Of a stretch of 64,000 bases of DNA, positions 19,674 to 55,342 are shown piece after piece. Below the pieces are notes generated by a model that did no database searches, was not told where the DNA came from, and was given only the letters and a program-made list of their open reading frames with translations. Both the position numbers and the translations under genes were made by a program. The stretch's first letter is position 1. Each line of letters begins with the position of its first letter. The stretch spans positions 26,147 to 90,146 of the forward strand of contig CAYLKE010000003.1 of the NCBI GenBank assembly GCA_964384425.1, given 5' to 3'. This DNA is from an uncultured Methanosarcinales archaeon (GTDB lineage: Archaea > Nanobdellota > Nanobdellia > Woesearchaeales > JAGLXL01).

Positions 19674-19682
19674 TTTATAAAT
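19674..19682 (+). promoter_or_regulatory. TATA box for the small ORF / radical SAM operon
   Basis: tttataaat is centred 28 nt upstream of the ATG at 19706. Confidence 0.5.
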
Positions 19683-19705
19683 CTCTTTTATTAAATTTAC
19701 ATAAA

Positions 19706-19771: not shown

Positions 19772-19798
19772 TTTTTTTATTTTCTTTTATTTTTTAAA

Positions 19799-28700: not shown

Positions 28701-28826
28701 AAAGTAATTAGCAGTATTTTGGATTTAACTAATAAACAAAAAAAATGGTTTAATAAAACAATAAATTTTTATGGTTCTGCATGTGAAACAATAAGAAATC
28801 TAATAGAAAAAAATAAGAAAAAATAA
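25755..28826 (+). CDS. Membrane-anchored eukaryotic-like Ser/Thr protein kinase with long coiled-coil/helical C-terminal region
   Basis: GKQGAMGAM (Gly loop), VLIKV, HRDIKPDNF, DWG (DFG variant), GTPLYMSSE. Single TM at AVGAGAGALFAIALIAGGIGF, then EKE-rich coiled coil. Confidence 0.8.
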   Translation: MAPNINEIKKMLVDNFEGDNRKKVFKYLKSRKFDVDKIKPFRLGGKVIDLRPMIEKIDNSLENFETSENNTVDYNDNLTMQEDGANNSLGKTHEKRYTNNDFLHYEYKIEDSPNYVFLQNKVKDNTIRKSLIELEKNNPDRYHEMKFFGKQGAMGAMILAKDRKAYDSSVLIKVPKDISNSNSLIRFRKEAKATRIASEKATSNHLVDLHIKPGDAAYSVQKRLSDRSISGADYHLRAGNKGSHLKSKYSLDDIVSTFTNLVKQMDILSHEGLIHRDIKPDNFLVDPDFNTTDVLDWGLTKILDDDNTLEDNDVRDRAEAFKNSMTLHDVILDENGNYSSKSRTKDNKEVVLTMNAMGTPLYMSSEQADSERLDQVSHQTDIYSLGGVLYYMLTGTDPRPLSERGRKVSGLPGIMLMKYDGSFSENLDYRRIRKLKKGKALEGMIKKMMAFNLDERYQDYGEIVDDINKWKNDEDLSCYEYSKLDKFKFWVKNQTGKAVGAGAGALFAIALIAGGIGFMNYQSGVELKEAETRLELKEKEQEKQKSENEKKLALERAKKKGLENKLLSSFNEKIKNLFGRRKKKLNTINEIGFMNNNHNDNLTLIKYTLKDNDWANYITDEVFWKLTYAVRHENLKKQLPELLVNTKNEDMQKAILENCKYFDIIRYDKKDLEDEWKRKNMLLELRNNEGFNVIARYNYLDSLRKVKIKTLFNEIDKEHEIIGSKIEKNYQNAILEIANFLNASAKDRLTLDEILKIKNTSKVSYFVERMKERNKKDKKEWMEKYISKIEENKDYHELCLDISFDVYDLLLNFSRRSMINTEKFVKQINAGFNVLPAERKEKKIWEKIREYDKEVNKFDNNFIAKYKLNLLSSFGYNLTSDINSAKYLVTFHGKNTKENLNDFKKKLNFYLKKNTEFAKFNNAPDGEKLYSYFNNEKSKAKYFLLEFKYNIRKEDDMNERDKIYQKYENKINKLINEMKDYQKVISSILDLTNKQKKWFNKTINFYGSACETIRNLIEKNKKK

Positions 28827-31343: not shown

Positions 31344-33086
31344 TTGATAAAATGTTTAGATTATGATATTGAAAGAGTTTTGAGTATTTTAGATTATAAA
31401 AATATAAGTTACACTCCATCAACTACAAATCTTATTAAAAAAGCCTATTTAATGAATTCAAAATTAACTGCAGAATATGTTAAGAAATATTTAAAAAAAG
31501 AAAATAAAGATAGCAAATATTTGTATCTTGCATTTAGGTTTATGGTAAAACACGATGCTGAAGTATTTGTAGATTTATACAAAAATATTACAAATAATAT
31601 TTTTGATAATCTATTTAATAATTCAAAAGACTATTCTGAAATAAGGCCCATAGTAAAAGCATTGAATTACTTAGTAAGAAAAAATATTAAATTATTTAAT
31701 GAATTGAGAGAAATGAGCAATACTTTTTTAGATTTTGAAATTGATGATAGCGACGATGAAAATTTATCTTTTAAAAAAATAATTAGTGTGTGTGAAAATT
31801 TTAAATATGCTTCTCAAAATTATGTTTTTAATTCTCCAACACAATTCTTAACTGATTATAATAATATAAATAATCAAATGAAAAAATTATTGTATATTAA
31901 TAAAATCAATGAAGAACAATTTAATACATTAAAGGAAGTGTATGTTCTCCCTGCATTAAGAAAATTAGCTAAAACCTTAGATTATGAAAAAATAAAACCC
32001 ATGGAAGAAATAGAATATAAATTTGTTAAAAAACTACTTAATGCGAATTTTATAAAGTGGGAAGGATGTGAAAGTGAAGAAGATATATTAAAAAAAATTA
32101 ATCCTTTATTTCATACAAGGAATAAATCTATACATTATAAAAAATATCATTCTATATTAGACGAGAAAAAGATTACGTCATTAAAAGAATTGCTTGAATG
32201 CGCTTCATATGATTTTGAAGGCATTTTCATAAAAAAATTAGGAGAAGGGTCTTTTGGTAATACTTATCTTGCCAAATTTATTGACAAAGGAGATAGGGCA
32301 GTTAAAATTATTAAAAAAAACAAAAACTTAGAAGAATCAATTATTTTGGATAAATTAAATCACAAGAACATTGTGAAGCTTTATCATTCGTCAGATAATG
32401 AGATTTCTAAATATGGAGAAGATTGTTCTTCTATATTTATGGAGTACATAGACGGAAAAGAACTAAGAGATATAATCGACAATAAAGAATTTAAAAAAGA
32501 AGATGCAAAGGAATGGACTTTAAACCTATTGGATGTTGTAAATTATCTTAATGAAAAAGAGATATACCACAGAGATATTAAACCAAGAAATATTAAAATA
32601 GATAGCAAGGGAATTTTAAAATTATTAGATTTTGGTGTTGCAACAACTAACATAGAAGAATATGAAGAAAAGTACAATAGAAAATATGGTGGAAGAAATA
32701 ATCTTTATTCTTTAAGTCTTATATCTTACGAATTATTTACAAGAGAATATCCTATTAAAAATGAAAAATTATTATCTACTAATTCCTTTAAAGATATGTT
32801 GAAAATATTAAAAGATGAGATGTTAGATAATGGAATCCTCAAAGATAAGTACAGATCTAAAATAAAAGAAAACATGCCTAAAGAGTTTCAAGAACCTATC
32901 ATTGCTGCTTTAGAATACAGACCACAAGAAGAATTAAATAAAGCTTTTTTTAATTTGAATGAAATAATCAAAATAAAAGAATTTGAAAGAAAAAGACCTA
33001 AAATAATCCAAACAATGAAAGATTGTGGATTTAATATTGATGGTATTACATATGATAAATATAAAAAAATAAAAAAATCATTTTAA
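31344..33086 (+). CDS. Ser/Thr protein kinase with N-terminal helical-repeat region
   Basis: GEGSFGNTY, AVKIIKK, HRDIKPRNIKID and LLDFGVA in the C-terminal 300 aa. The annotated start is TTG, and no ATG occurs in the open frame back to 31182. Confidence 0.75.
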   Translation: MIKCLDYDIERVLSILDYKNISYTPSTTNLIKKAYLMNSKLTAEYVKKYLKKENKDSKYLYLAFRFMVKHDAEVFVDLYKNITNNIFDNLFNNSKDYSEIRPIVKALNYLVRKNIKLFNELREMSNTFLDFEIDDSDDENLSFKKIISVCENFKYASQNYVFNSPTQFLTDYNNINNQMKKLLYINKINEEQFNTLKEVYVLPALRKLAKTLDYEKIKPMEEIEYKFVKKLLNANFIKWEGCESEEDILKKINPLFHTRNKSIHYKKYHSILDEKKITSLKELLECASYDFEGIFIKKLGEGSFGNTYLAKFIDKGDRAVKIIKKNKNLEESIILDKLNHKNIVKLYHSSDNEISKYGEDCSSIFMEYIDGKELRDIIDNKEFKKEDAKEWTLNLLDVVNYLNEKEIYHRDIKPRNIKIDSKGILKLLDFGVATTNIEEYEEKYNRKYGGRNNLYSLSLISYELFTREYPIKNEKLLSTNSFKDMLKILKDEMLDNGILKDKYRSKIKENMPKEFQEPIIAALEYRPQEELNKAFFNLNEIIKIKEFERKRPKIIQTMKDCGFNIDGITYDKYKKIKKSF

Positions 33087-34601: not shown

Positions 34602-35210
34602 TTAATATTTACTTAACACATACTCTTCAATTAATTGCCTAAATTCTATTGCTTTATCAACTGCTTTCTTTGCTTCATGCATTTCAGCCAATCTTGTCAT
34701 TCTATAAGTAAAGAAGTTTCTATTGTCTTTTTGTTTTTTCAAATCTCTTGCACATTTTTTAACTCTCTGTAATTCCAAAGTTTCGTCTTGTAAATCTTGA
34801 AACATTGCCAATGCTTTTGACATCCTACTAGTTGTTATTTTGTTGTTATTTTTTTGTTCAAGTTCAGAACCTTTAATAATATAATAAAACAAAAATGCCA
34901 AATAGGTTTTTTTATGAGTATCTTTCACATTATCTGGAAGTTTTTTATTATCTAAACTCAAAAGATATTCTACTTCAAAAAACATAGAATAATAACTTTG
35001 AGTAATTATCCAAATAAAAACACTTTCGTTATCATTCAATTCATTTGTTTTTTCTATCTTATCCAAAAGATAAATTGATAAGTTCAATGAATCTTTTGCT
35101 TTTCTTTTACAATGTTCTATAAATTCTTCAGAAGGTATTTTCCAAATATTTTTATTATCCCATTTAATAAAAACTTTTTTTGCTTCTTCAATATCCCTTT
35201 TCTCTAACAT
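34602..35210 (-). CDS. HEPN-domain protein (pair 1)
   Basis: All-helical, with QSYYSMFF and NRNFFTY motifs. Overlaps the stop of the upstream MNT gene. Confidence 0.55.
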   Translation of the reverse strand: MLEKRDIEEAKKVFIKWDNKNIWKIPSEEFIEHCKRKAKDSLNLSIYLLDKIEKTNELNDNESVFIWIITQSYYSMFFEVEYLLSLDNKKLPDNVKDTHKKTYLAFLFYYIIKGSELEQKNNNKITTSRMSKALAMFQDLQDETLELQRVKKCARDLKKQKDNRNFFTYRMTRLAEMHEAKKAVDKAIEFRQLIEEYVLSKY

Positions 35211-35826
35211 ACTGTTTCACCATTGCATAATATTGTTCTGTTCCAAAAACAACAATTCCATGTTGAAAGGCACTTCTTCCGACACTATTTCTTTTTTCAA
35301 GCATCTTCATAAAATCTTCAACACAAACAATATTTATGTCTTTTTTGAATGCAGTATGTAATCTAGATATTTTATTAAGTCTTTCCTTGTATTTCTCGGT
35401 ATCTTTCCGATAAGGAATAATAAAAAGTAAATCCAAATCTGAATTTTTAGTATGTTTTTGTTTTGCATAAGAACCAAAAATAACTAAACTATAAAACATA
35501 TCATATAAATCTTCTTTTATTTCTTTTAAAAAAAGAACAATTTTTGGTTTTTTCTTCAAAAAATTATTTCCCTCATATAATATAGCAGAACTTAACCTAT
35601 CTATTGAAACATTGCAAAAATCAATAGATATCAAATTAGATCTTCCTTTTTTCTCTAATTTTATTATTTTTCTCTTAATCAATCCAGGAATTATTTTATG
35701 TACTGTTACATAAGACAAATTAGTTTCTTTTGATATTTGGTTTAAACTTTTACTTTCCAAAGGAGATCTAAGTAATTTTCCAATTATTTTATTTTTAGTA
35801 TCAGTATAATTTTTCATATTATTCAC
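35188..35826 (-). CDS. wHTH + minimal nucleotidyltransferase (MNT) protein (pair 1)
   Basis: IFGSYAKQKHTKNSDLDLLFI (GS...D.D NTase motif) with an N-terminal wHTH. Confidence 0.75.
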   Translation of the reverse strand: MNNMKNYTDTKNKIIGKLLRSPLESKSLNQISKETNLSYVTVHKIIPGLIKRKIIKLEKKGRSNLISIDFCNVSIDRLSSAILYEGNNFLKKKPKIVLFLKEIKEDLYDMFYSLVIFGSYAKQKHTKNSDLDLLFIIPYRKDTEKYKERLNKISRLHTAFKKDINIVCVEDFMKMLEKRNSVGRSAFQHGIVVFGTEQYYAMVKQYVREKGY

Positions 35827-36991: not shown

Positions 36992-37441
36992 ATGAAACCG
37001 AAAGAATTGAAAATTATCGCACACCTAAGACAAAACGCAAGAATGCCTTTAACAAAGATGAGCAGAAAAACCCATATTCCAGTATCAACATTATTTGACA
37101 ATTTAAAAGCAAAGGAAAAATCAATTATAAGAAAACATACTAGTCTTTTAAACTTCAGCAAATTAGGATATGATGCAAGAGCAAATATTGCATTAAAAGT
37201 AGACAGAGACGATAAAGAAAATCTATTAAAACAATTGAAGATGGCAAATGAAGTTAATTCTCTGTATAAAATAAACAATGGATTTGATTTTATGATAGAA
37301 GGGATATTCAAGAATGTTAGAGAAATGGAATCTTTTATAGAAAACTTAGAAAATAAATTCAAGATAACAGACAAGAAGTTTTTCTTTATCATAGAAGATC
37401 TGAAAAGAGAGGAATTCATGAGTAATGAGAACTTGGTTTAG
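36992..37441 (+). CDS. Lrp/AsnC-family regulator (copy B) with replaced C-terminus
   Basis: Near-identical to copy A up to ...REEF. It ends MSNENLV where copy A ends MGNPNLIN, because an inserted cassette starts at ~37417. Confidence 0.8.
   Translation: MKPKELKIIAHLRQNARMPLTKMSRKTHIPVSTLFDNLKAKEKSIIRKHTSLLNFSKLGYDARANIALKVDRDDKENLLKQLKMANEVNSLYKINNGFDFMIEGIFKNVREMESFIENLENKFKITDKKFFFIIEDLKREEFMSNENLV
37336..37420. repeat. 85-bp direct repeat, left copy (right copy 43873..43957)
   Basis: Base-by-base comparison shows the copies are identical except one C/T at 37417/43954. Confidence 0.9.
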
Positions 37442-37541
37442 GCATATAATGTCGGAAAGTTTACGAAATCTGAAACATATAATTAATATAGACTTTTCAT
37501 TATATTGTATTTTTATATATGTATTAAGACAATTCAGAAAA

Positions 37542-38408
37542 ATGAATAAAATTAAAGCAAATAAAATAAATCTAGCAATTATTTCTCCTTTTAATTATTT
37601 GGAACACTCTCTAAAAGGAGATATACACATGGCTTTAACTCATTTAGTTCTAAATGAAGATAATTTAGAATATGTTCAGTTTTATCGTCAATCGAATAAA
37701 TATAAAATATTAGATAATTCGGCATTTGAGCTAGAAGAATTAGGGGTTGGGTTAAAATCAAACCTAGTTTTAAAAGCAGCTGATATTATTTCAGCAGATG
37801 AAATAATTGCAACAGATGTACTTTACAAAGCAGAGGAAACAATTGAATCAACAATAAATTTCATAAATGATGTAAAAAATAAAAATAAACATTCAGATTA
37901 TAAAATTCAGGCTGTTGCTCAAGGATCATCAAAAAAAGAGATTTTATATTGTTTTCATGAATTAATGAAAATGAATAGTGTTAATGTGATTGGATTAAGC
38001 AAATTAGGAATTCCTGCTTCATATAAAGATCACATAATGGAAGGCGATGTCATGAGATCAAGAATTAGTTTCATTAACACAATAATTAATTCTAAAAAAT
38101 ACAAATTAATAAATTCACAACTTCAATTTAAAGATTATTCTCCAAAAAGCTTACATTTATTGGGGAGCGATAACAGGGGCTTTCAAGAATTATGGTACTA
38201 TAGGAATATTCCATTCATAAGATCCATGGATACTTCAATGCCTATTTGGTATGCATTAAATGGAAAATACATAAGTGAAAGTGAAAATTTTATTCCTGAA
38301 TTATTTAAAGAGAAAGTTGATTTTAAATATACAGAAGAAAATAAAAAATTGTCCTCAAAAAGAATTAAGAATAATTTAGAAAAACTAATGAAAAATTCAT
38401 GGAGGTAA
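37542..38408 (+). CDS. TGT-superfamily TIM-barrel protein, DpdA-like (putative base-exchange transglycosylase)
   Basis: Ordered motif matches to tRNA-guanine transglycosylase: LDNSAFE (cf. DSGGFQ), QAVAQGSS (cf. GIVQGG), NVIGLSKLG (cf. AIGGL), LHLLGSDN (cf. YLMGVG), SMDTSMP (cf. FDCVLP). No Zn site or PUA domain. Start set at the ATG at 37542. Confidence 0.5.
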   Translation: MNKIKANKINLAIISPFNYLEHSLKGDIHMALTHLVLNEDNLEYVQFYRQSNKYKILDNSAFELEELGVGLKSNLVLKAADIISADEIIATDVLYKAEETIESTINFINDVKNKNKHSDYKIQAVAQGSSKKEILYCFHELMKMNSVNVIGLSKLGIPASYKDHIMEGDVMRSRISFINTIINSKKYKLINSQLQFKDYSPKSLHLLGSDNRGFQELWYYRNIPFIRSMDTSMPIWYALNGKYISESENFIPELFKEKVDFKYTEENKKLSSKRIKNNLEKLMKNSWR

Positions 38409-38782
38409 AAATGAAAATCAAAAGATGGGTAACTATAAAAACATCATTTAATGGAATTCATAATTGGGAAAGATGCCCTATCAAAAGTGTAAATTTTCTT
38501 AAATATCCACATAGACATAAATTTTTAGTTAATTTAAGCATTCAAGTAAATGATGCTGATAGAGAAATTGAATTTTTTGTATTTCAAAAACAAATCAATG
38601 AAATAATAAAATCTTTATTTGAGAAACAAGAAAATGGTTGTTTGAATTTGGGATCAAGAAGTTGTGAACATGTATCTGATTTAATTTATAATAAAATAAG
38701 TGAAATTTATGGTAATGCAAATTGCCGAATAACTATTAGTGAGGATGGTGAAAATGAAGCAACCTGTGAATATGTCAATTGA
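38399..38782 (+). CDS. QueD/6-pyruvoyl-tetrahydropterin-synthase-like (T-fold) protein
   Basis: FNGIHNW..C...YPHRHKF.V.L (His triad plus Cys pattern), SCEH, and a C-terminal ...ATCEY comparable to the QueD C-terminus. Overlaps the upstream gene. Confidence 0.55.
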   Translation: MEVKMKIKRWVTIKTSFNGIHNWERCPIKSVNFLKYPHRHKFLVNLSIQVNDADREIEFFVFQKQINEIIKSLFEKQENGCLNLGSRSCEHVSDLIYNKISEIYGNANCRITISEDGENEATCEYVN

Positions 38783-39776
38783 AGAAAAATACATGAAGAT
38801 AGCTATTGAATTATCTAAAAAAGGTAATTTAATTCATAGTCCTTATGTTGGATGCGTTGTTGTTAAATCAGATAAAATTATTGGAAAGGGATTTTACGAA
38901 TATGAAGGAGCTCAACATGCTGAAGTAATGGCTTTTAAGAATATACCTTCGAATGATGCAAATAAATCTACAGTGTATGTAACTGTAGAACCATGTTCAG
39001 TTTATTCACGTACTCCTCCATGCACCAGACTTCTAATAGAAAAAGGTATTGAAAAAGTAGTTATGGGTATGTTAGATCCAAATCCATTGACTAAGGGAAG
39101 AAGTATTAAAAAATTTAAAGAAAATAACATTGACTTCCAAATTGGGATTTACGAACAGGAAATAATTAAATTAAATCAAAATTATATAAATACTGTATTA
39201 AACAACATAGATAATAAGGAGTGTTTTAAATATCGTGGTGTTCTTTCATTATGTGGGTTACCCGGATCAGGAAAAAGTCAAATAAGTAGAATCGTAAAAT
39301 CAATGTATGATATTGATGTTTTAGATGTTAGCTCAAAGTTACGAAGTATATCTATTGAACGATATGGCAATTCAAACAGAAACAATCTCATAAAAACTAG
39401 AGAAAAGATTATTAATTCTATGGGCAAAACAGGAGTTTTGGAATTAGCTTTATCAGAACATAAACTCAATTCTGATATTCTTTTAATCGATAGTGTTAGA
39501 ATTCTAAAAGACATAGAATTATTGTATAATAAATTTTCATCTTATTCTAAGACTATTGGGGTAATTGCTTCAAAGTATCAAAGATATCAAAGAATAAAAG
39601 AAAGAAGTAACAATAACATTTCCCATGAAGAGTTTATATCAAGAGATAAATGGGAGAAGAAAATAGGTGTCACAGAATGTATTGCTTCTTCAGATTATGT
39701 AATAAATAATTTGACTGATTTAAGCAACTTAAAAAAACAAATCCATGATTTGTTAGACCATTTTTATTTATTATAA
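38772..39776 (+). CDS. RibD-type cytidine/deoxycytidylate-deaminase-fold domain fused to a P-loop nucleotide kinase
   Basis: HAEVMAF...TVYVTVEPCSVYSRTPPC...MLDPNP (RibD deaminase signature), then GLPGSGKS (Walker A) and an R-rich lid (QRYQRIKER). The start is ambiguous (38739 GTG, or 38754 or 38772 ATG). Confidence 0.7.
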   Translation: MSIEEKYMKIAIELSKKGNLIHSPYVGCVVVKSDKIIGKGFYEYEGAQHAEVMAFKNIPSNDANKSTVYVTVEPCSVYSRTPPCTRLLIEKGIEKVVMGMLDPNPLTKGRSIKKFKENNIDFQIGIYEQEIIKLNQNYINTVLNNIDNKECFKYRGVLSLCGLPGSGKSQISRIVKSMYDIDVLDVSSKLRSISIERYGNSNRNNLIKTREKIINSMGKTGVLELALSEHKLNSDILLIDSVRILKDIELLYNKFSSYSKTIGVIASKYQRYQRIKERSNNNISHEEFISRDKWEKKIGVTECIASSDYVINNLTDLSNLKKQIHDLLDHFYLL

Positions 39777-40558
39777 TTAGAACAGGAAGAATTAATTTTG
39801 CAAGAAGAACATAATTTTTTACTACAACCATATGAACCTGTAATCCACATAGCCCTATCTAAATCAAGAATATTAATATCATTATCTTTGCAGTAATCAG
39901 TATAGAATTTCTGTAGCTGAGATGCATAAAAATATTTGTCTTCTCGTGAATTTGTTTCTAAAGCAATTTTTGTCCACAAACTAATATTTACATCATGAGA
40001 ATCAATAGGCATCATCAATCCATCTAAACTTTTTGGACTTATAAGTTTTTGTTCTATCATGAAAAAGACGAGTAAATTTGATATTTTTGGACCAAACCCA
40101 TAAAAGTCAGATAAATTATTTAAGATATTCTTCACATCACCCTTAAAGACATTTTTTACATTCGATTGGTAATTATTAACTAATAATTGTGAATTATTTA
40201 ACCATCTTTTAATAGCTTGATTAGGAAATCTAGGTTTTAAATATTTTCTTAGATCTGATGATAATGTTTCTTCTTCATATTTAATAATTTGTTCTGCATC
40301 AAATAATTTGGGATTTTCATTATACATAGCAATCCCTCTTTCAATCAAAGAACTCATTTTAGTCCCATAATTAATGGAATTCATATAAAATAAAAATTTA
40401 AAGTGTTCTTCACTACCTGTTTTTATTGATGAAGGAATATTTTGATCAGGAGTGATAATATTCTCAGTAAATATGCCTGTTTTGTTATAAAATGAACTCA
40501 TTAATTCATTAATGACTTTTTTACTACGAGACAAATTAAATTTTAATTTATATTTCAT
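39764..40558 (-). CDS. HhH-GPD superfamily DNA glycosylase with C-terminal 4-Cys (Fe-S loop-like) motif
   Basis: HhH FYGFGPKISNLL, catalytic-Asp region MPIDSHD, and C-terminal GCSKKLCSSCKINSSC (C-x5-C-x2-C-x5-C, close to the EndoIII/MutY cluster spacing). Confidence 0.65.
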   Translation of the reverse strand: MKYKLKFNLSRSKKVINELMSSFYNKTGIFTENIITPDQNIPSSIKTGSEEHFKFLFYMNSINYGTKMSSLIERGIAMYNENPKLFDAEQIIKYEEETLSSDLRKYLKPRFPNQAIKRWLNNSQLLVNNYQSNVKNVFKGDVKNILNNLSDFYGFGPKISNLLVFFMIEQKLISPKSLDGLMMPIDSHDVNISLWTKIALETNSREDKYFYASQLQKFYTDYCKDNDINILDLDRAMWITGSYGCSKKLCSSCKINSSCSNYNK

Positions 40559-41465
40559 ATTTTTTTAGTATGTGGTCTATTTTCTTTATTGCGTAAGATG
40601 TTGTTTTTATAAATCTATCAGTTTTAATAAGGTTGTTAATTTTTTCATGATTCAAATTAAAATCATACCCTACTTGACTAATAGATTCACTAGCAATAAA
40701 AGTAGCAAATTTTAATGAACTGATTAAATTATTAGTTAAATTATAATTATATATAAAACTAGTTGCAAAGAAGTCTCCCGCACCAGTAGAGTCAATTTCT
40801 TTATTTGGATACGAACTAGTATGGTAAATTTTATTATTTTTAAATAATAAAGAACCTTCTTTATCTAATGTAACAAATAACATCAAATCTTTGTTACTTT
40901 TTGTTAATTGATTTATAGTACTTATTGTATTTTGATTTTCTAATTCTTTAATTTCACTCTTGTTAACAAATAAATAATTAACATTTTTAGAGATAGATAA
41001 TAATCTTTTAAGATTCCGAGCATAATCTCCTTGTGGGGAGAATGCCAAAGGAATATTTTCTCTCTTTGCTTTATTGGAAACATTTTTATGAAGTGAGTAA
41101 TTTGAAGTACATAAATAAATGAATTCAGAGTTCCAGAATTCATAAGGTAATCTCTCTAATTTCATTAATTTTTGTGATTCTCCAGATATCAATACTTTCC
41201 TTTCGTCTTCACAACGATAATCCAAAGTTATTCTTTTTGTTTTGACATTTTCTTTATTAATCTTCAAATTAATATTTTTCTTTTTAAGAAAATCAATAAA
41301 TTTAGGAGAGAAATCGTTGCCTATTGTAGTATATAATGAAACATCTGATTTAAATTGTGTAAAACTCAGAGATGCATAAATTGCAGAACTTCCCATTAAA
41401 GTAATTTCTTTATCATTATAAATTAAATTATCTATAGAGATTGAACCAAGTACAGAATATTTCAT
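40548..41465 (-). CDS. PfkB-family (ribokinase-like) sugar/nucleoside kinase
   Basis: C-terminal signature DSTGAGDFFATSFIY. Length and N-terminal beta-strand pattern are typical of the family. Confidence 0.75.
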   Translation of the reverse strand: MKYSVLGSISIDNLIYNDKEITLMGSSAIYASLSFTQFKSDVSLYTTIGNDFSPKFIDFLKKKNINLKINKENVKTKRITLDYRCEDERKVLISGESQKLMKLERLPYEFWNSEFIYLCTSNYSLHKNVSNKAKRENIPLAFSPQGDYARNLKRLLSISKNVNYLFVNKSEIKELENQNTISTINQLTKSNKDLMLFVTLDKEGSLLFKNNKIYHTSSYPNKEIDSTGAGDFFATSFIYNYNLTNNLISSLKFATFIASESISQVGYDFNLNHEKINNLIKTDRFIKTTSYAIKKIDHILKKYEI

Positions 41466-42442
41466 TTTTCTAGATCTATTATGTCTCCAATATTTGGACC
41501 TTTTGTTAAAAGAGCCACCTTAACATTCGTTTGTTCTTCTATAAAGTTAATGGTTTTTTGAACATTTCTATCTATTTCATTGTTCATTGAAATATAATCT
41601 GTGAAAGTTAATGCTATTTTAGTTGCACCATTTACTATAGAAGCATTTTTAATCAAATCAACATCCAGACCCCCAACTCTCCGTAATCTTTTAGTTATCG
41701 ATGAATATTCTTTTATATTACTATTTGTTTCTTCTTGATACAATCTTCCTGGTCCAACTCTGCTTTCTCTACATCTTACAACTAAATAAACCTCTTTAAC
41801 TCTTTGAGGAGATAAGCCTAGACTAGACAGAGCCTCTGAAGTTGTTGTATCTCTACTAGTAACGTAAGGATAATCTCCATGATATAAAGATAATCCAAAT
41901 CCTTGACTCCCTTCGACAATCAAAGAATCTCCATTATTTAATCTTGAATTTATCTCTTTTACTGTATCTATTTGATATTCACTTAATATTTTAATATCTT
42001 TCATCAATTTAGCTTTTCTTAAAATTCTATCAGAATATGCTTCTCCAACACCTGATAAAGTTGATCCAACTTCTTTTTCAAGAAATTTATTTTGTTTTTC
42101 TCTAAGAATATATTCTTCTTCAATAACTGCACTAAATTTATCGACTTTGACTCTATTTGGGTTTAATTTAAACATATTGATTTCAGTAAGTAATGTCTGG
42201 GGGTGAATTAACATTCCTCTAGATAAATACAATGTTGTGTTATTGTTTGTAACTCCTGCAGGAATATGTCTTAATACTATTTTTTCATTGTTGTAATGAA
42301 TAGTATGTCCTGAATTATATGATCCTACTCTTGCCGCCATATTAAAATTATCTCTATTACATAAATAAGATGAAATTCGCCCTTTTCCTTCATTACCATA
42401 TTGAGATCCAATAACTAGAGTAACTTCATTTTTATAATCCAT
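41462..42442 (-). CDS. Short adenylosuccinate-synthetase-family enzyme (PurA/PurZ-like) with Asp->Asn in the P-loop
   Basis: GSQYGNEGKGR (cf. PurA GTQWGDEGKGK), NSGHT (cf. NAGHT), VEGSQG, YPYVTS, SRVGPG, KRLRRVGGLD. 326 aa, like short archaeal PurA. Confidence 0.7.
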   Translation of the reverse strand: MDYKNEVTLVIGSQYGNEGKGRISSYLCNRDNFNMAARVGSYNSGHTIHYNNEKIVLRHIPAGVTNNNTTLYLSRGMLIHPQTLLTEINMFKLNPNRVKVDKFSAVIEEEYILREKQNKFLEKEVGSTLSGVGEAYSDRILRKAKLMKDIKILSEYQIDTVKEINSRLNNGDSLIVEGSQGFGLSLYHGDYPYVTSRDTTTSEALSSLGLSPQRVKEVYLVVRCRESRVGPGRLYQEETNSNIKEYSSITKRLRRVGGLDVDLIKNASIVNGATKIALTFTDYISMNNEIDRNVQKTINFIEEQTNVKVALLTKGPNIGDIIDLEK

Positions 42443-42791
42443 TTTGAATCATCCCCTTATCAGTATCAAAACTTAACATATTAATATCATCAATTGGTAT
42501 CCACATTAATTCTTCTGCTTCATTTGTTTTAATTTCTCCATCCCATTGAGATATCAAGTAATAATTTATGTTCAGGACATTTCTTGTTTTAGTTCCTAAG
42601 AATTTAATCTCTTTTGCTTTAATATTTAATTCTTCTTTAATTTCTCTTGTGACTGCATTTTCATGCGATTCATTAGCCTCAACTTTTCCACCAGGAATCA
42701 TGATTGTATCTGGATCTAATAATTTATTTTTCTTTCTTTTTTCAACAAGAATCATATTTTCTTTTTTTAATATAAAAGATACAATTTCCAT
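42432..42791 (-). CDS. Nudix hydrolase (MutT-like)
   Basis: Nudix box GKVEANESHENAVTREIKEELNI fits G-x5-E-x7-REUxEE. Confidence 0.8.
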   Translation of the reverse strand: MEIVSFILKKENMILVEKRKKNKLLDPDTIMIPGGKVEANESHENAVTREIKEELNIKAKEIKFLGTKTRNVLNINYYLISQWDGEIKTNEAEELMWIPIDDINMLSFDTDKGMIQNGL

Positions 42792-42954
42792 AAAGTTAGC
42801 AAATTTAAGTAATATATAAAGATTATCTTAATTTAATAGTATAATGTCGGAAATAATCTGACAGTAAGTTTAATAAATAAGTTTATCACTTAGATGATAT
42901 AAAAAAATAAATCAAAAAGATGCTAAAAAATATGCATTACAATAATTTAAGAAA

Positions 42955-43344
42955 ATGCCTGAATTAGAAAAGCAGTGGAATATTATTCATTCAGAATCAA
43001 TAATAGAAATATTGAACGTTATTGCTACTAACAAAAATATGAATTTAGAAAAATTCTTTTCTTTGGCATGGCTACATGATATTGGAAAAATTAAATCAGA
43101 AAAAAACCATGCAGAAATAAGTTTAGAAATGTTAAAAGAAGAATTTGAATTGGATGAAATTGATAAAGATTGTATTTTAAATCATGGATCCTCATCAGAA
43201 CCAAAGACCAAAGAAGGAGAAATATTTCGTTATGCTGATGGATTATCTTTATTTACTAATGAATCGATTAAGTTTAGATTCTATGCAGAGGCTAAAGAAG
43301 GATTAGATTTTGAACAAATCAAAGAAAAACTCAAAAAGATATAA
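42955..43344 (+). CDS. Small HD-domain phosphohydrolase
   Basis: LAWLHDIGK (HD dyad) with downstream H (NHAE, LNHG) and D (YADG) residues. 129 aa. Confidence 0.6.
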   Translation: MPELEKQWNIIHSESIIEILNVIATNKNMNLEKFFSLAWLHDIGKIKSEKNHAEISLEMLKEEFELDEIDKDCILNHGSSSEPKTKEGEIFRYADGLSLFTNESIKFRFYAEAKEGLDFEQIKEKLKKI

Positions 43345-43421: not shown

Positions 43422-43871
43422 ATGAAAAACTTAACTAAATTCCTAAAATATGCAAAAAAGAAAGCATATGCTTCGAAATTAACTTTTCCTAAGAAGACAA
43501 TTTTTAATGGTAAACGACATATAATTAAAAAAGATGATTTGATTTATATTGATACTTATTATGGAGATAAAACATTTTCAGGTAAGGAAGTTATATTAAT
43601 TAAAAAATCTCCTGTTTGGTCTATGGTTTATTATGGAGGTATTAAAGATAATGACTTAAATAAAAAAGATATTTACAAATTCTTAAAATATTGTTTAAGA
43701 GATATTCCAGATACATTTCCAATAAGAGGGAAAAACAATATTGTTAAAAATAGATTCAAATATGTAAATAAATGGAAAGGGGATTTAAAATCATTTGAAG
43801 GAAACGAAAGGATTTATTTTAAAGAAAAATTAGTGTATTCTTTGAGATATATTGGTGGAAAAATCAATTAA
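43422..43871 (+). CDS. Hypothetical protein (DUF5680-like by recollection)
   Basis: The pattern Y.D.Y.G...F.G.E.V......P.W.M.Y.GG is recalled from DUF5680-type proteins. The assignment is unverified. Confidence 0.3.
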   Translation: MKNLTKFLKYAKKKAYASKLTFPKKTIFNGKRHIIKKDDLIYIDTYYGDKTFSGKEVILIKKSPVWSMVYYGGIKDNDLNKKDIYKFLKYCLRDIPDTFPIRGKNNIVKNRFKYVNKWKGDLKSFEGNERIYFKEKLVYSLRYIGGKIN

Positions 43872-43981: not shown

Positions 43982-44002
43982 TTTTTTATTTTGTTTTTGT
44001 TT

Positions 44003-44107
44003 ATTATGATTTATAAATTCCTCGCTAGTACTTGTCCAGTGTGTCCAGTGGAATCATTCCGAATAATTGTTAGAAGTGTTTTTAAAAAATATTTCTTAAG
44101 AAAAGTT
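44003..44107. repeat. Junction repeat A, copy 1
   Basis: attatgatttataaattcctcgctagtacttgtccagtgtgtccagtggaa + hairpin ggaat-c-attcc + ..ttgttagaagtgtttttaaaaaatatttcttaagaaaagtt, ending at a start codon (44108). Confidence 0.85.
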
Positions 44108-44761
44108 ATGGAAAACCGAAAACTATTTAAATGTTTAAATAATATAAACAATTGTTTAAAAATGTTAAACATAATAAATAAAGGTTATAAAAAGATATTG
44201 AAGTTATTTTATGATAATAGAAAGAGTTTTCATCTTAGGGAAATTGCTAAAAAAACTTCTCTTAATGAAAATAGTGCATATCGTTTTCTTAATGTTTTAG
44301 AAAAAGAAAACATATTAAAATCAAATAAAAAAGCTAATCTTAAGCTTTTTTCATTAAATAAAAACAATAAAGTTTATTCTTTGTTGTCTTGTTTTGATAT
44401 TGAAAGATATGAAAAACTTCCTTCTATAAAAAAACAAGCAATAGGATATTTTTTAGAAAAATTAGATAAAAAACCATTTATAGTGATACTATTTGGTTCA
44501 ACAGCAAAAGAAACTTATAGAAAAGATTCAGATATTGATTTGTTTTTAATAGTCAATGAAAAGATAAATACTAGAAAAGCAAAAAATTACACTGATTCAC
44601 AAACAGCACAAATAATAAATGATTTTCAAATAAGTTTTAATGATTTTAAAAAAGATCTTAAAATGAAATCAGAAAAAGTTCTGCAATCAGCTCTTGAAAC
44701 AGGATATCCCATATTAAATCATATTGAGTTTTATAGGTGTGTTGAAGATGAAGAAATATGA
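44108..44761 (+). CDS. wHTH + MNT nucleotidyltransferase (pair 2)
   Basis: LFGSTAKETYRKDSDIDLFLI. Start moved to the ATG at 44108, because the track's N-terminal extension translates repeat A. Confidence 0.75.
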   Translation: MENRKLFKCLNNINNCLKMLNIINKGYKKILKLFYDNRKSFHLREIAKKTSLNENSAYRFLNVLEKENILKSNKKANLKLFSLNKNNKVYSLLSCFDIERYEKLPSIKKQAIGYFLEKLDKKPFIVILFGSTAKETYRKDSDIDLFLIVNEKINTRKAKNYTDSQTAQIINDFQISFNDFKKDLKMKSEKVLQSALETGYPILNHIEFYRCVEDEEI

Positions 44762-45263
44762 TATTGATAGATATCTTGATAATAAAAATCTTGTTGAAAA
44801 AAAGATAAATGAATTTATTAAGGATAAGGTAATTGTTAAAGAAACTTCTCCATCTGAGATAAAAGGACATATGCTAAAAGCAAGTCATAATCTTGAATTT
44901 ATAAAAAAGATAAGTAAAACAGAATTTAAAGATTGGGCTGTTACTGGATGTTATTATGCTTCGTATCATGCAGCATTGGCTTTGATAATGACAAGAGGAT
45001 ATTCTTCTAAAAATCATCTTGCCACTTTTTTAATAATAGTAAAAGAATTCTATAAAAAAGGATTAGAAAAAGAAGATATTGAAGTTTTTTCAGACATGTT
45101 GGATTATGAAGATATATTATTTTATGTTGAGTTTAAAAACAAAAGAGAAGATGCAAGTTATTCAACTAATCTTTTATTTGATAAAAAAGATGTTGAAGAA
45201 TTAAGAATAAAAGCAGTATTGTTTGTTTCTAAGATAAGATCTATTATTAGGAATAATTCTTAA
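44748..45263 (+). CDS. HEPN-domain protein (pair 2)
   Basis: GCYYASYHAALAL...SKNH...REDASY. ATG at 44748 overlaps the MNT stop. Confidence 0.65.
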   Translation: MKKYDIDRYLDNKNLVEKKINEFIKDKVIVKETSPSEIKGHMLKASHNLEFIKKISKTEFKDWAVTGCYYASYHAALALIMTRGYSSKNHLATFLIIVKEFYKKGLEKEDIEVFSDMLDYEDILFYVEFKNKREDASYSTNLLFDKKDVEELRIKAVLFVSKIRSIIRNNS

Positions 45264-45843: not shown

Positions 45844-46500
45844 ATGAAAATAAAAGAGATGTGTGTAAGGGAAAGACCAAGAGAGAGGTTGAAGAAAGAT
45901 GGAGTTAGTTGTTTGAGTAATTCTGAGTTGTTAGGTGTTGTTTTAGGCAATGGAAGTAGAAAAGAGAATGTTGTTGATATGTGTAATAGATTGATTTCTA
46001 ATATTGGAATGAAGAAGTTGAGTAAAAGTAGTTTGAAAGAGTTGCAAGAGTTTCATGGAGTTGGTTTTTGTAAAGCTTGTCAGATACTTGCTTTGTTTGA
46101 GTTTTGTAAACGGGTGGAAGTTATTAAGAATGAAAGAGTTATTATTAAAAGTGCTAAAGATGTTTTTAATTATATTTATCCAAAAGTTAAAGATTTAGAT
46201 AAAGAACATTTTATTGTTTTGATGTTAGACACAAGAAATGGAATTATTAAAGATGAAGTTGTATCAGTGGGAACGTTAAATAGTTCTTTAATTCATCCTC
46301 GTGAAGTGTTTAAGTCAGCTATAAAAGAAAGTGCAAATGCATTGATCCTCGTTCACAACCATCCATCAGGTGATTGTAGTCCATCAGATGAAGATATTGA
46401 TGTTACAAAGAAGTTGATAAAAGTTGGAGAGGTTGTTGGAATAAAAGTACTAGATCATGTAATTGTTGGAGGAGGGAAATGGTGGAGTTGGGATGGATGA
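45844..46500 (+). CDS. radC: RadC-like JAB-domain protein
   Basis: N-terminal RERPRERL...LSNSELLGVVLG, HhH-like region, JAMM motif HNHPSG...PS..D. Confidence 0.85.
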   Translation: MKIKEMCVRERPRERLKKDGVSCLSNSELLGVVLGNGSRKENVVDMCNRLISNIGMKKLSKSSLKELQEFHGVGFCKACQILALFEFCKRVEVIKNERVIIKSAKDVFNYIYPKVKDLDKEHFIVLMLDTRNGIIKDEVVSVGTLNSSLIHPREVFKSAIKESANALILVHNHPSGDCSPSDEDIDVTKKLIKVGEVVGIKVLDHVIVGGGKWWSWDG

Positions 46501-46515: not shown

Positions 46516-47019
46516 TTATTCATTTTGTATGATATCTTCTGTTTTTTGAATAAAATCTAAAACTTGTTTTTCATATAAATTTATTAATTTATTTGTAAAA
46601 TATTTATCTGTTTGATAACTTGCATGGTGTCTATCTGATTTAAGATTTGTGTATAATTCTGCATCTTCTTTGTTAATGGATAAGTTATTAATCAAGTCAG
46701 CTTCTTTTTTTGTTATACTATATTCTTTTATTAAAATAAGGATTGTTGCATAATGATTTTTAGAAGAATAATTTTTATTAGTTATTAATGCTAAAGCTGA
46801 ATGATAAAGTGCATAATATAAAATAACAATAAGCCAATCATTGAAATTGCTTTGATTTTTGTTTATTTTATAGAAATTTATATTGTGCTTTGCTTTTTTT
46901 AAATATGATTTAACTAATTCATTGTTTTCGTCAATTTTAAGAATGTGTTTTTTCTTTATGAAAAATTGCAATTCTTTTTCTAAATATTTTTTATTAATAA
47001 ATAATTCTTCAATATCCAT
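46516..47019 (-). CDS. HEPN-domain protein (pair 3)
   Basis: YYALYHSALAL...SKNH...DRHHASY. Confidence 0.65.
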   Translation of the reverse strand: MDIEELFINKKYLEKELQFFIKKKHILKIDENNELVKSYLKKAKHNINFYKINKNQSNFNDWLIVILYYALYHSALALITNKNYSSKNHYATILILIKEYSITKKEADLINNLSINKEDAELYTNLKSDRHHASYQTDKYFTNKLINLYEKQVLDFIQKTEDIIQNE

Positions 47020-47581
47020 CTAAAAGCACCTCATAAAAATTCTGTTCTTTATATATTGGAAATCCTGTTTTTCTTGCTTGAATAATAACATCATCAATAT
47101 TTTTTATAAATTCACGAATATTATATTGAAAAATATTAATTGGGTAATTTGATATTAATTCTCCTTCTTTTTTATTTTTATTTATATTTATTTTTTTATG
47201 TGAGATTATTAATAAATCTATATCACTTCCTTCTCTTTCTTGTTTTCGTGATGCAGAACCAAAAAGAATTATTGTGTATATTCCTTTGTTTATGTTTTTT
47301 AGGAAGTTATTTAGTGGTATTCTTACTCCTCTGTTTAATTCTTGGAATTTTTTTATTGCTAGTTCAGAAAATTTCAATTCAAATAGTTTTTTATTTTTTA
47401 TTGTATAATAGGTATTTGATTTAGTTTTTTCTTTAGATAATATTTTATTTTTTATTAGTTTATTTAATGTATTAGTCAAAGAACTATCTGATAGTTTTGA
47501 AAGTTCTTTTATTTCATTAAAATATAATCTACTTTTTTTACTCTTGAAATATGCTTTATATACTTTTTCTTCAGGTCTCAT
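47009..47581 (-). CDS. wHTH + MNT nucleotidyltransferase (pair 3)
   Basis: LFGSASRKQEREGSDIDLLII. Palindromic TATA atttataaat at 47603..47612, 26 nt upstream of the ATG. Confidence 0.75.
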   Translation of the reverse strand: MRPEEKVYKAYFKSKKSRLYFNEIKELSKLSDSSLTNTLNKLIKNKILSKEKTKSNTYYTIKNKKLFELKFSELAIKKFQELNRGVRIPLNNFLKNINKGIYTIILFGSASRKQEREGSDIDLLIISHKKININKNKKEGELISNYPINIFQYNIREFIKNIDDVIIQARKTGFPIYKEQNFYEVLLDGY

Positions 47582-53460: not shown

Positions 53461-55341
53461 TTATTTTTGCTTTAATCTTTTCTTTAAATAATCAGATAAT
53501 TTTTTATCACAGCAATAAATATAACATCCTTTTTGTCCTCTAGTCATCAATGTTCGATATGTGTTTCTAATTACTTGGTCTGCTAATTTTTTAGCCTTTT
53601 TAGGATTTTCTTTAAGCATTTTTTTTAAACCCCACAAAGATCTATCTGTTGAAGCTCTTTTTGTATGGTCTGTTACAACTTTATCATTTTCGTATCTTAA
53701 GTCTTCTCCAATTATTACACCAACATAATCAAATTCTAATCCTTGTGATGTATGAATACATCCTGCTTGTTTAACAGAATCTGGATCTATTGCCCAAGTA
53801 GAACTATTTCCTAAATTCCAACTCATTTTAAAATCATCCCCAATAACAATATCATAAATATTAGGATTATTTTTTTCTTTAGTTATCCATTTCCAACAAT
53901 AACCAGCCACAATTCTTGATTTATTATTTAATTTATTTTTCTTTTCTATTTCATTTTGCATTTCTTTAGGATTATCAAAAACTTTAATCTCATAATTCAT
54001 CTCAAATCCATCTGCATTTGCTGTTTCTCTTATTCCTAAAACATCATCTAACCAAGCTAAATAGCCATCTGATCCATTACATCTGAATTGAGAATCTAGT
54101 TTATGAAAGAATATTTTTGCATTTAATCTATTTGCAAACTTTTCTATTTCTTCTTTAGAACCAATATCAAAAATATCAACTTTTTGATCTTCATCAATAA
54201 AAAATACACTAAATTTAGAAGCATGAATTATTTCTTTTATCTGATTTTCACCTTTATTTCTAAATAATCCTGATTTTTCATTTAGTCTGTGAGCTTCATC
54301 CACAACTAATGCAGGAAAAACATTCTTTTCAGAATCATGAAATGCTCCAGAACCTCTAAATAAGTGGTTAATTTGACCATTTTTGATATTACCTTTTAAT
54401 TTTGAACAATAAACATTTCTCGGAGATGCGTTTTTTGAAATATATTGAGATGTTATGTTTTTTTCAATAAATTTAACCAATAAATTAATAGCAAGAACAG
54501 ACTTTCCTGTTCCTGGACCCCCTTCAACAACCAATACTCTTTTTTTATCATCTTTGTATGATTTAAGAGCAAGTTTCAATGCTTCTTCATATACAAGTTT
54601 TTGAGAATCAATCATAATAAATTCTTGATTTCCTTGTAGCATGCTACAAACAGAATCTTGTAATGATTTTGAAGGTTTAATTTTTCCATTATTTATTTCA
54701 TATAAATTTTGTTTTTTATCTCCAAATTTTATATGTTTTTTAATAAATTCTCTCAGTTTTAATGCATCTCCTTTCAAGTATAATGGAGCAGCATCAACAT
54801 AGTAAGAATATATATTATTATCTAATTCATCTCTAAATTCTTTTTCAAAATTATGTAAATAAGCACAAGGAAGTAATTTAATTTCACCTTTTTGAATAGT
54901 TTCATTAAAATCACTTATAAATTTAAAATAAGACCATGCTTGATAAGAAGGATGTGTTGTTTCTCTTATTCCTCCACCTAAAAATGTTTTAACAATACCA
55001 TCTTTATCTTCAACTCTTGTAGTATCTTTACCAGACCATTGTTTTAATTCAATAATTATAACATTTCCATTCTTTTTTTCATCATATCCAGAAATAATAA
55101 AATCAATTCTTTTAGATGTTAAAGGAATCTTAAATTCGATAGCAATCCCAGAATCATCAGGAATAGTATCACATGATAATACTTTATACATATAGTTTAA
55201 TGAATTTTTCCAAGATCTAACTTCAGATTCGCTTCCAACATGTAAATTATTTCTTAAGTAAGCACTTCTAATCTTATCTACTATTGTTTCATTAAAAGAA
55301 TCATTCAAAAATTCGCTTTTTGTTGCTTCATATATTAACAT
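53461..55341 (-). CDS. DUF2075-type nuclease-helicase (N-terminal PD-(D/E)xK-like + P-loop SF1-like ATPase)
   Basis: IDFIISG...IIIELKQW (D...ExK), GGPGTGKS (Walker A), VVDEAHRL (Walker B), C-terminal GLEFDYVGVIIG. Start set at MLIYEATK (55341), 1 nt after the MazG stop. Confidence 0.7.
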   Translation of the reverse strand: MLIYEATKSEFLNDSFNETIVDKIRSAYLRNNLHVGSESEVRSWKNSLNYMYKVLSCDTIPDDSGIAIEFKIPLTSKRIDFIISGYDEKKNGNVIIIELKQWSGKDTTRVEDKDGIVKTFLGGGIRETTHPSYQAWSYFKFISDFNETIQKGEIKLLPCAYLHNFEKEFRDELDNNIYSYYVDAAPLYLKGDALKLREFIKKHIKFGDKKQNLYEINNGKIKPSKSLQDSVCSMLQGNQEFIMIDSQKLVYEEALKLALKSYKDDKKRVLVVEGGPGTGKSVLAINLLVKFIEKNITSQYISKNASPRNVYCSKLKGNIKNGQINHLFRGSGAFHDSEKNVFPALVVDEAHRLNEKSGLFRNKGENQIKEIIHASKFSVFFIDEDQKVDIFDIGSKEEIEKFANRLNAKIFFHKLDSQFRCNGSDGYLAWLDDVLGIRETANADGFEMNYEIKVFDNPKEMQNEIEKKNKLNNKSRIVAGYCWKWITKEKNNPNIYDIVIGDDFKMSWNLGNSSTWAIDPDSVKQAGCIHTSQGLEFDYVGVIIGEDLRYENDKVVTDHTKRASTDRSLWGLKKMLKENPKKAKKLADQVIRNTYRTLMTRGQKGCYIYCCDKKLSDYLKKRLKQK

Positions 55342-55342
55342 T

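Follow-up and report, generated by a model that had tools for sequence, protein, structure and literature searches.

A PurA-like ligase with asparagine at the catalytic-aspartate position in a putative two-operon island for non-canonical purine metabolism of an archaeal chromosome

PurA-family enzymes are, to our knowledge, the sole route from 6-oxo to 6-amino purine nucleotides, and loss of their catalytic aspartate has so far, in PurZ and PurZ0, always meant an enzyme that makes a new base. We analysed a PurA-like protein encoded in a 64-kb stretch of archaeal DNA (the window), in which the catalytic aspartate of the P-loop motif GDEGKG (Asp13 of E. coli PurA) is replaced by asparagine, giving GNEGKG with Asn17. 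The gene lies in a ~6-kb island of two operons in an AT-rich archaeal chromosome. We infer that this island serves non-canonical purine metabolism and that its operons, one of which encodes DpdA3-like and DpdL-like proteins, are functionally linked.

Several described systems bear on this locus. In toyocamycin synthesis the PurA step is taken by ToyG, reportedly characterized as a dedicated PurA homologue by McCarty and Bandarian in 2008. In the tubercidin cluster, genes for C7 decarboxylase, C2-deaminating enzyme, Nudix hydrolase and carbohydrate kinase occur together, and conversion of the 7-deaza-IMP analogue to 7-deaza-AMP depends on PurA and PurB. For the PurA family itself, recent literature gives Asp13 as essential and 99% conserved in PurA and reports serine in 147 of 147 phage PurZ and PurZ0 sequences, with a few archaeal Ser/Gly sequences basal to the phage enzymes. 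In the paper on the S-2L PurZ structure, residue 13 adjoins C2 and the 2-amino group of dGMP, and a larger insertion in the loop after RVG is tied to exclusion of the 2'-OH. Finally, Cui, Hutinet and colleagues assigned two genes of Cellulophaga phage phiST, which carries 7-deazaguanine in place of every G, as DpdA3 (CGPG_00065) and DpdL (CGPG_00067, a predicted 7-carboxy-7-deazaguanine decarboxylase). The phage enzymes are inactive in E. coli, and both families had previously been described in phages only.

A preliminary description of this locus had singled out the altered P-loop of the PurA-like protein and proposed a parallel with the PurZ/MazZ/DatZ logic of phage 2-aminoadenine synthesis. 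The open reading frames (ORFs), motif set and gene overlaps that it gave are borne out by the coordinates and the sequence, and the motifs that it quoted (GNEGKGR, GSYNSGHT, STLSGVGE, EGSQG, YPYVTS, SRVGPG and KRLRR) are all present. Its focus on the P-loop residue was well placed, as position 13 adjoins the purine C2 in PurZ structures and is Ser in the phage enzymes. The Asn17 codon, AAT, is a single transition from GAT, and an independent Logan assembly (run SRR15425353) yields an identical protein. Asparagine at position 13 was found in 0 of the 119 closest matches, 0 of 149 representatives from an exhaustive search, 0 of the 76 loci with a readable P-loop among 80 archaeal and bacterial (GTDB) genome loci, and 0 of 80 viral loci, all of which carry Ser. 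The variant is therefore not common, being absent from the ~430 relatives checked. Among the 119 best matches, 90 combine G[S/G]EGKG with CGGPNSGHT and 29 are archaeal enzymes with GDEGKG; in the genome-contig profile scan, 74 of the 80 loci encode Asp-type archaeal PurA.

The protein is distant from all of these relatives. Its best non-self match is 43–44% identical, none among 5.8 billion proteins exceeds 44%, and HMMER, run exhaustively over 1.8 billion representatives, revealed no closer relative; among solved structures in the PDB, Pyrococcus PurA matches best (E = 1e-64, full length). Against NF003295, the model of short archaeal PurA, it scores 325.6 bits over its full length, below the curated cut-off of 368, with Asp-type relatives at 531–537 and Ser/Gly-type relatives at 339–403 bits. 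The PurZ model NF038379 gives 165.8 bits, below its cut-off of 300. Our own hidden Markov models (HMMs) score the protein almost equally, at 331 bits (Asp-type) and 339 bits (Ser/Gly-type), against 523–624 and 464–633 bits for the members of each type on their own model, so that it represents a third lineage between Asp-type PurA and the Ser/Gly/PurZ clade. Phylogenetic placement was by neighbour joining (NJ) with bootstrap only. In the NJ tree the protein sits at the base of a non-Asp super-clade comprising the Ser/Gly family, PurZ and PurZ0, and with 165 sequences it joins this super-clade in 138 of 200 replicates, a clade being counted if it held at least 90% of the non-Asp and at most 15% of the Asp-type sequences. 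Its nearest neighbours in the bootstrap tree are atypical Asp- and Gly-type proteins. Given the NF003295 score and the bootstrap result, the protein does not group firmly with housekeeping archaeal PurA, as the preliminary description had anticipated, and Asn is a third state of position 13. The protein sits close to where PurA and the PurZ clade diverge.

Asparagine is unable to serve as a general base in the PurA mechanism. When the protein is aligned to E. coli PurA, the ligand-binding and catalytic residues K16, N38, H41, T129, R143, Q224, T301, R303, R305 and D333 are kept, as are 59 of 70 near-invariant columns, with deviation at the other 11. Since the guanine-specifying D333 is retained, GTP is the predicted donor, as in PurA and PurZ0, and the kept residues and columns together argue for an active, GTP-using, ribose-tolerant enzyme. 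The pocket carries the changes A39S, G130L, G302K and R304L (E. coli numbering), and S39, L130, K302, L304 and Y334 are held in common with the non-Asp clade. That clade's two-residue (GN) insert after RVG and its conserved Trp are both missing, and Arg252, at the position of the ribose-contacting Arg303 of E. coli, is retained where PurZ has Lys. From this residue pattern, the protein is probably an active ligase with a remodelled base pocket, especially at the C2 edge, and most likely uses GTP and aspartate. It is not built like a deoxy-specific PurZ. The loss of its catalytic Asp, together with its close packing with 7-deazapurine genes (described below), suggests that its product is probably an unusual adenine-like nucleotide rather than ordinary AMP.

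The closest sequence relatives, which are of the Ser/Gly type, occur in a conserved cassette of Bacteria and Archaea. Its genes encode a ~540-aa PF13482 (RNase_H_2) protein, the PurA-like protein, a DCD-like protein anchored by membrane helices at its C terminus, and a deoxynucleoside kinase. Its hosts are Ca. Manganitrophus, Anaerobaca, a Nitrospiraceae metagenome-assembled genome (MAG) and an Archaeoglobaceae MAG (loci L002 6362-10707, L003 6444-10712, L014 4389-8499 and L043 1003-4858). The Nitrospiraceae locus has no deoxynucleoside kinase, and a Nudix-box protein, read from sequence, lies ~400 nt downstream of its DCD-like gene. Many metagenomic Ser/Gly members are fused to P-loop kinases or DCD, and Archaeoglobaceae MAGs additionally hold an ordinary Asp-type PurA. 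Because Ser is found in PurZ and PurZ0, and the Ser/Gly relatives sit in dedicated cassettes and fusions, a residue other than Asp at position 13 marks non-housekeeping members of the family. The window protein resembles the cassette proteins in identity (41–44%), in NSGHT, L130, K302, L304 and Y334, and in being linked to nucleotide kinases, with a Nudix-box protein (read from sequence) likewise present in the case of L043. Unlike them, it has Asn rather than Ser or Gly, lacks the GN insert and the Trp, and scores 339 bits where members reach 464–633. By these features it does not appear to belong to the cassette family, and tblastn with the cassette's partner proteins found nothing in the window. 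There is no PADLOC model for the cassette or for the PurA-like protein, and neither is described in the literature searched; the cassette is apparently undescribed, and a defence-system reading of the PurA-like protein was set aside on these negatives. The cassette loci do resemble defence islands, with SLFN-type genes nearby.

In the window, the PurA-like gene is surrounded by the following features.

37425-38408, plus strand: DpdA3-like transglycosylase of the tRNA-guanine transglycosylase (TGT) superfamily, 327-aa ORF (phrog_20335, E = 6e-17)
38399-38782, plus strand: DpdL-like T-fold protein, 127 aa (phrog_17812, E = 3.5e-19)
38739-39776, plus strand: fusion of a RibD-type deaminase and a P-loop kinase (dCMP_cyt_deam_1, E = 7e-17; AAA_18)
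39764-40558, minus strand: 264-aa orphan protein, fourth and final gene of the minus-strand operon
40548-41465, minus strand: PfkB-family kinase, 305 aa (PF00294, E = 4.5e-21)
41462-42442, minus strand: PurA-like ligase, 326 aa, short archaeal-type adenylosuccinate-synthetase family (PF00709, E = 3.7e-58)
42432-42791, minus strand: MutT-like Nudix hydrolase, 119 aa, heading the minus-strand operon (PF00293, E = 2e-15)
42792-42954, no strand: AT-rich spacer of 163 nt between the divergent Nudix and HD starts (from coordinates and sequence), presumed to hold both promoters
42955-43344, plus strand: small HD-domain phosphohydrolase, 129 aa, divergent from the Nudix gene (PF01966, E = 2.7e-10)

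All seven genes of the two operons overlap or abut. At the Nudix stop and PurA-like start the overlap is 11 nt, at the PurA-like stop and PfkB start it is 4 nt, and between PfkB and the 264-aa gene it is 11 nt; judging from these junctions, the PurA-like ORF appears intact and translationally coupled at both ends. The plus-strand operon (37425-39776) comprises the DpdA3-like, DpdL-like and deaminase-kinase genes and converges on the minus-strand operon, the 3' ends of the deaminase-kinase and 264-aa genes overlapping by 13 nt. Neither this convergent operon nor the fourth overlapping gene of the minus strand had been seen in the preliminary description. The HD gene is a putative member of the island. 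By their profile matches, the family assignments of the PurA-like, Nudix, HD and PfkB proteins are far beyond chance.

The DpdA3-like and DpdL-like proteins match PHROGs of unknown function, and both have homologues in the phiST 7-deazaguanine cluster. The former, whose true start is probably near residue 41, is 26% identical to CGPG_00065 over 257 aa (tblastn, E = 3e-14). Its AlphaFold2 model (pLDDT 86.7) has archaeosine TGT (ArcTGT, 1IQ8), bacterial TGTs and DpdA, the DNA preQ0 insertase (7UI4), as top Foldseek matches (E = 4e-7 to 2e-5). On the strength of this model the protein is assigned a TGT/DpdA fold, and by its phiST match it is a homologue of DpdA3. The DpdL-like protein, a QueD-like T-fold protein, is 29% identical to CGPG_00067, has a weak, full-length PTPS match, and carries the signature LxxxHRHxF, which replaces CxxxHGH, as LKYPHRHKF; the residues H, HRH, F, SCE and E are invariant across six DpdL-like sequences. 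The third protein joins a CDA-fold, RibD-type deaminase domain (approximately residues 13–153) to a C-terminal P-loop nucleotide kinase. It scores 132 bits with TIGR00326, the N-terminal half of RibD, over residues 19–153, carries the RibD-like motif EPCSVYSRTPPC and has PHROG matches to dNMP kinases. Compared with phiST, the window has a homologue of each of these two phage genes, and the encoded proteins show the DpdL signature and the TGT fold. The setting differs: it is an archaeal chromosome that also carries FttA, aminoacyl-tRNA synthetases and tRNAs, and the pair is accompanied by genes for PurA-like, PfkB, Nudix and deaminase-kinase proteins, which the 2023 DpdA3 paper does not mention.

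The partners of the PurA-like gene are less sharply classified. The Nudix protein has an intact Nudix box (GX5EX7REUXEE, read from sequence), MutT/NudG-type NCBIfam matches that all fall below their cut-offs, and 3EES, MutT and a CTP pyrophosphohydrolase as best PDB matches. PfkB has weak NCBIfam matches to ribokinase and archaeal nucleoside kinase and PDB matches to 3KD6 and the sugar kinase MJ0406; it is probably a nucleoside or ribose-type kinase. MJ0406 itself is a nucleoside kinase. For the 264-aa protein, searches returned no homologues and no PDB match, Pfam was negative even at E = 10 and hhalign was not significant, and a single-sequence AlphaFold2 model (pLDDT 41) was unusable. A weak TIGR03252 match (E = 1.3e-3) and inspection of its sequence, which shows a GFGPK hairpin, PIDSH and, at the C terminus, CX4CX2CX5C, suggest that it is possibly an HhH-GPD/Fe-S glycosylase-like protein.

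Similar gene families recur with DpdA3 and DpdL elsewhere, as seen on the contigs that carry the closest DpdA3-like relatives (L096, L098 and L095). A metagenome contig (L096, 1186-6348) carries DpdA3, DpdL, a thymidylate-kinase-like gene, an FAD enzyme, PfkB and HhH-GPD. In a Micromonospora chromosome (L098, 986-10747), a cluster of radical SAM, FolE, QueD, thymidylate kinase, QueE, PfkB, a second thymidylate kinase, an FAD enzyme, HhH-GPD, DpdA3 and DpdL is adjoined by a Nudix gene; cellular relatives of DpdA3 and DpdL were also found in Longispora. On the 35-kb contig L095, a Ser-type PurA-like gene is accompanied by DpdA3, DpdL, QueD, a nucleoside deoxyribosyltransferase (NDT), a member of the IMPDH/GMP-reductase family and GTP cyclohydrolase. 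The viral contig L180 likewise has a Ser-type PurA-like gene, whose product is the second-best viral match to the window protein; FolE, DpdL, a CDA deaminase and a QueE-like gene all lie no more than 7 kb from it. PfkB, Nudix, NMP kinase and possibly HhH-GPD thus recur with DpdA3 and DpdL, and with the window there are three separate 7-deazapurine loci that hold a PurA-like gene. We considered whether the CDA deaminase of L180 corresponds to the RibD-type domain in the window and rejected this, since it resembles ordinary phage dCMP deaminase. We also note that L096 and L098 share an accessory set of PfkB, HhH-GPD, one or two thymidylate-kinase-like proteins and a ~470-aa FAD-dependent PF21688 protein, with Nudix in L098; the 2023 paper does not mention this set.

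The reading that we place first, tentatively and somewhat short of an even chance, is that the PurA-like protein, as one step of a DpdA3/DpdL island, aminates a non-canonical 6-oxopurine nucleotide other than IMP in the manner of ToyG or PurZ. The starting compound would be a 7-deazaguanine-type base or nucleotide, either made or salvaged, with DpdL decarboxylating 7-carboxy-7-deazaguanine and the DpdA3-like enzyme exchanging the base. PfkB, the P-loop kinase domain and the Nudix enzyme would shift the 7-deazapurine among the nucleoside, monophosphate and triphosphate levels, and the deaminase may alter the C2 amine. The PurA-like enzyme would then phosphorylate O6 and add aspartate, giving an N6-succinyl adenine-type nucleotide for PurB, which was not found in the window, to resolve. 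Its role would correspond to that of ToyG or the borrowed PurA in toyocamycin and tubercidin synthesis and of PurZ in 2-aminoadenine synthesis. The data show the family membership, the residue pattern, the operon structure, the identity of the DpdA3-like and DpdL-like proteins and the joint recurrence of these families at other loci. We infer activity despite the Asp-to-Asn change, a 7-deaza and/or C2-substituted substrate rather than IMP, and the fate proposed for the product.

The window resembles the tubercidin and toyocamycin systems (ToyG/ToyF or borrowed PurA/PurB; TubD, TubF, TubG, TubH) in having the same enzyme classes around the PurA step, among them a decarboxylase that leaves C7 unsubstituted: decarboxylase, C2-deaminating, PurA, Nudix and carbohydrate-kinase classes all lie within 37425-42791, the tubercidin cluster being compared by its published description. 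The individual enzymes differ, however, the window having a T-fold DpdL for UbiD, a hydrolytic RibD-type deaminase for GMP reductase and a TGT-like DpdA3 for the phosphoribosyltransferase, and FolE, QueD and QueE are absent from it. Neither a PurB nor a second PurA was found in the window. The absence of PurB, as against the Asp-type relative P0119 (L011, 193-4605), which sits in a phosphoribosyltransferase-PurB-PurA operon, counts in favour of the proposed amination of a non-IMP nucleotide. After the P0119 operon comes a gene for an FAD-dependent protein that shares ~30% identity (E = 1e-50) with its counterparts in the DpdA3 clusters, so P0119, itself among the closest relatives of the window protein, may not be purely housekeeping and is weakened as a control.

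Several points weigh on the other side: (i) 7-deaza-IMP is not obviously in need of the loss of Asp. (ii) A nucleoside kinase, an NTP pyrophosphatase and PurA would likewise fit plain purine salvage. (iii) The view of the genome is 64 kb, in which FolE, QueD and QueE were not found and radical-SAM similarities, at 18.3–20.7 kb, are only weak; no phosphoribosyltransferase or PurB of a 7-deazaadenine pathway was found in the window either. (iv) The window PfkB, Nudix and 264-aa proteins match their L096 and L098 counterparts at family level only; direct orthology was considered and dropped, no sequence similarity being detected. (v) The HhH-GPD assignment of the 264-aa protein, drawn from its motifs, is weak. 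(vi) A PurA-like gene was found in 0 of 80 viral DpdA3 loci, and 7-deazapurine genes in only 1 of 80 viral PurA-like loci, so the association is rare. (vii) L095 and L180 encode Ser-type PurA-like proteins that share only 33–39% identity with the one in the window and are not its orthologues.

A more specific version of this pathway, which we consider doubtful, is that the island makes a 7-deaza-adenine-type nucleotide, either tubercidin-like or, should the RibD-type deaminase act first or not at all, a 2-oxo or 2-amino 7-deazaadenine. The PurA-like protein would be the dedicated C6 amination enzyme, with Asn17 reading an altered C2 edge, and the product would serve in nucleic acid or as a toxic nucleoside, beside 7-deazaguanine inserted by DpdA3. 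If so, the PurA family would have been recruited to 7-deazapurine chemistry in archaea and in uncultured viruses (L095, L180), a third route beside PurZ and ToyG.

The alternative that survives best, unlikely in our view but a real contender, is housekeeping salvage by an ordinary, fast-evolving PurA that converts IMP to adenylosuccinate. PfkB would make IMP from inosine, the Nudix enzyme would clean or recycle NTPs, the Asp-to-Asn change would be tolerated or compensated, and the adjacency of DpdA3 and DpdL would be coincidental packing in a compact genome. The protein does resemble short archaeal PurA (P. horikoshii 5K7X and 2D7U) in fold, length class, loop lengths and GTP, IMP-phosphate, ribose and aspartate contacts. 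Save for Asp13, its IMP-, aspartate- and GTP-contacting residues are kept, the ribose-contacting Arg included, the loop has the canonical length with no PurZ-clade insert, and the best structural match is the Pyrococcus enzyme. PfkB resembles MJ0406, a nucleoside kinase. High divergence is to be expected here, as the tested window proteins are all singletons at 90% identity, and the score of 331 bits on the Asp-type HMM is as good as that of Ser/Gly members on the same model. The differences from short archaeal PurA are the Asn for Asp, A39S, G130L, G302K, R304L and the replacement of GPFPTE by GRLYQE, together with a score below the curated equivalog cut-off and, in contrast to P0119, no adjacent purB. 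Also against salvage, the replaced residue is essential and 99% conserved in PurA, with Asn in none of the ~430 relatives, several pocket residues follow the non-Asp clade, PurB is not nearby in the window and the partner gene families recur in 7-deazapurine clusters.

The PurZ/MazZ/DatZ parallel of the preliminary description fares less well, and we regard a true PurZ-like function as quite improbable. Here the enzyme would convert (d)GMP to N6-succinyl-2-amino-adenylate and thence to 2,6-diaminopurine nucleotides, with Nudix supplying the monophosphate and HD removing (d)ATP. Like PurZ and PurZ0 (6FM1, 7ODX, 7VF6), the protein has lost the catalytic Asp, which is replaced in every member of both groups, at a position adjoining the 2-amino group of dGMP. 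It falls on the same side of the tree, within the super-clade that holds them, has K302 and a hydrophobic side chain at 304 in common with them and, like PurZ0, retains the GTP-type Asp; nucleotide hydrolases (Nudix and HD) are encoded next to it. Yet PurZ identity is contradicted by the 166-bit score against a cut-off of 300, by 28–32% identity to phage PurZ and PurZ0, by Asn where these have invariant Ser, by the lack of the deoxyribose-selectivity loop insert and the Trp, and by Arg rather than Lys at 303. The partner genes are different and the setting is a cellular chromosome, not a phage. The HD protein, for which no PDB relative was found, had been set in parallel with the dATPase DatZ, a correspondence we reject since it has no detectable similarity to phage VP5 DatZ (E = 1.9). 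The supposed pyrophosphohydrolase is a generic MutT-like Nudix enzyme, and no MazG, DUF550, DutZ, dUTPase-like or PolA/Z-type polymerase was found among the window ORFs scanned. What stands of the earlier idea is that the enzyme is a non-canonical member of the PurA family and that its neighbourhood is nucleotide-modifying; the recurring context is that of 7-deazapurines (DpdA3/DpdL) and not of 2-aminoadenine.

Least probable of all, and very unlikely, is a catalytically dead or regulatory PurA paralogue that arose by a recent G-to-A transition (GAT to AAT) in an AT-biased genome or that only binds nucleotides. In its favour, Asn is one transition from Asp, GC is ~25% and Asn is no general base. 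Against it, the reading frame is unbroken, with translational coupling to both neighbours, every other active-site residue is kept along with 59 of 70 near-invariant columns, Ser/Gly-type relatives also without a base at this position include the proven PurZ and PurZ0, and the many further lineage-specific changes speak for long independent evolution rather than a fresh lesion.

If the link between the operons is functional, an undescribed modified purine in archaea would be indicated, the PurA-like protein would offer an enzyme that can be assayed to learn how substrate choice evolved in its family, and DpdA3/DpdL systems would extend to cellular genomes with an unexplained set of PfkB, HhH-GPD, NMP kinase and Nudix. 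If it is not, the protein would still be the first natural PurA with Asn at the position of the essential base.

The window as a whole is an archaeal chromosome segment with GC ~25% throughout. It encodes FttA/aCPSF1 (KH_TffA plus beta-CASP), two class-II aminoacyl-tRNA synthetases, an amino-acid permease and three tRNAs, and no viral structural genes were found around the island. Its assignment to Archaea is drawn from FttA/aCPSF1, the synthetases and a tRNA that probably bears an intron. A DUF5680 protein (E = 6e-31; 43422-43871, plus strand) lies directly downstream of the HD gene. Flanking the island are three pairs of nucleotidyltransferase and HEPN-type (MntA/HepT-like) genes at 34602-35826, 43991-45263 and 46516-47581, the HEPN domain being confirmed by Pfam only in 44724-45263 and the other two partners being read from sequence, as well as a RadC/JAB gene (45844-46500) and an Lrp-type regulator. 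Further away are a Schlafen-group-3 helicase of 662 aa (53461-55449, minus strand; PF09848, E = 1e-104), whose N-terminal part has a weak phosphoribosyltransferase-like tblastn match (E = 0.003), and proteins of 1023 and 580 aa with Ser/Thr protein-kinase domains (25755-28826 and 31344-33086, plus strand). The stretch 18323-21423 encodes a radical-SAM protein of 424 aa that shares 29% identity over 151 aa (E = 2e-13) with the first gene of the Micromonospora DpdA3 cluster, also radical-SAM, and it is adjoined by a radical-SAM/SPASM protein with weak QueE-like similarity and by a creatininase-family protein. Between tRNA-Ser and tRNA-Asn lies a 102-nt tRNA (6192-6293, minus strand; Rfam 57.6 bits) that was missed by ARAGORN and probably bears an intron.

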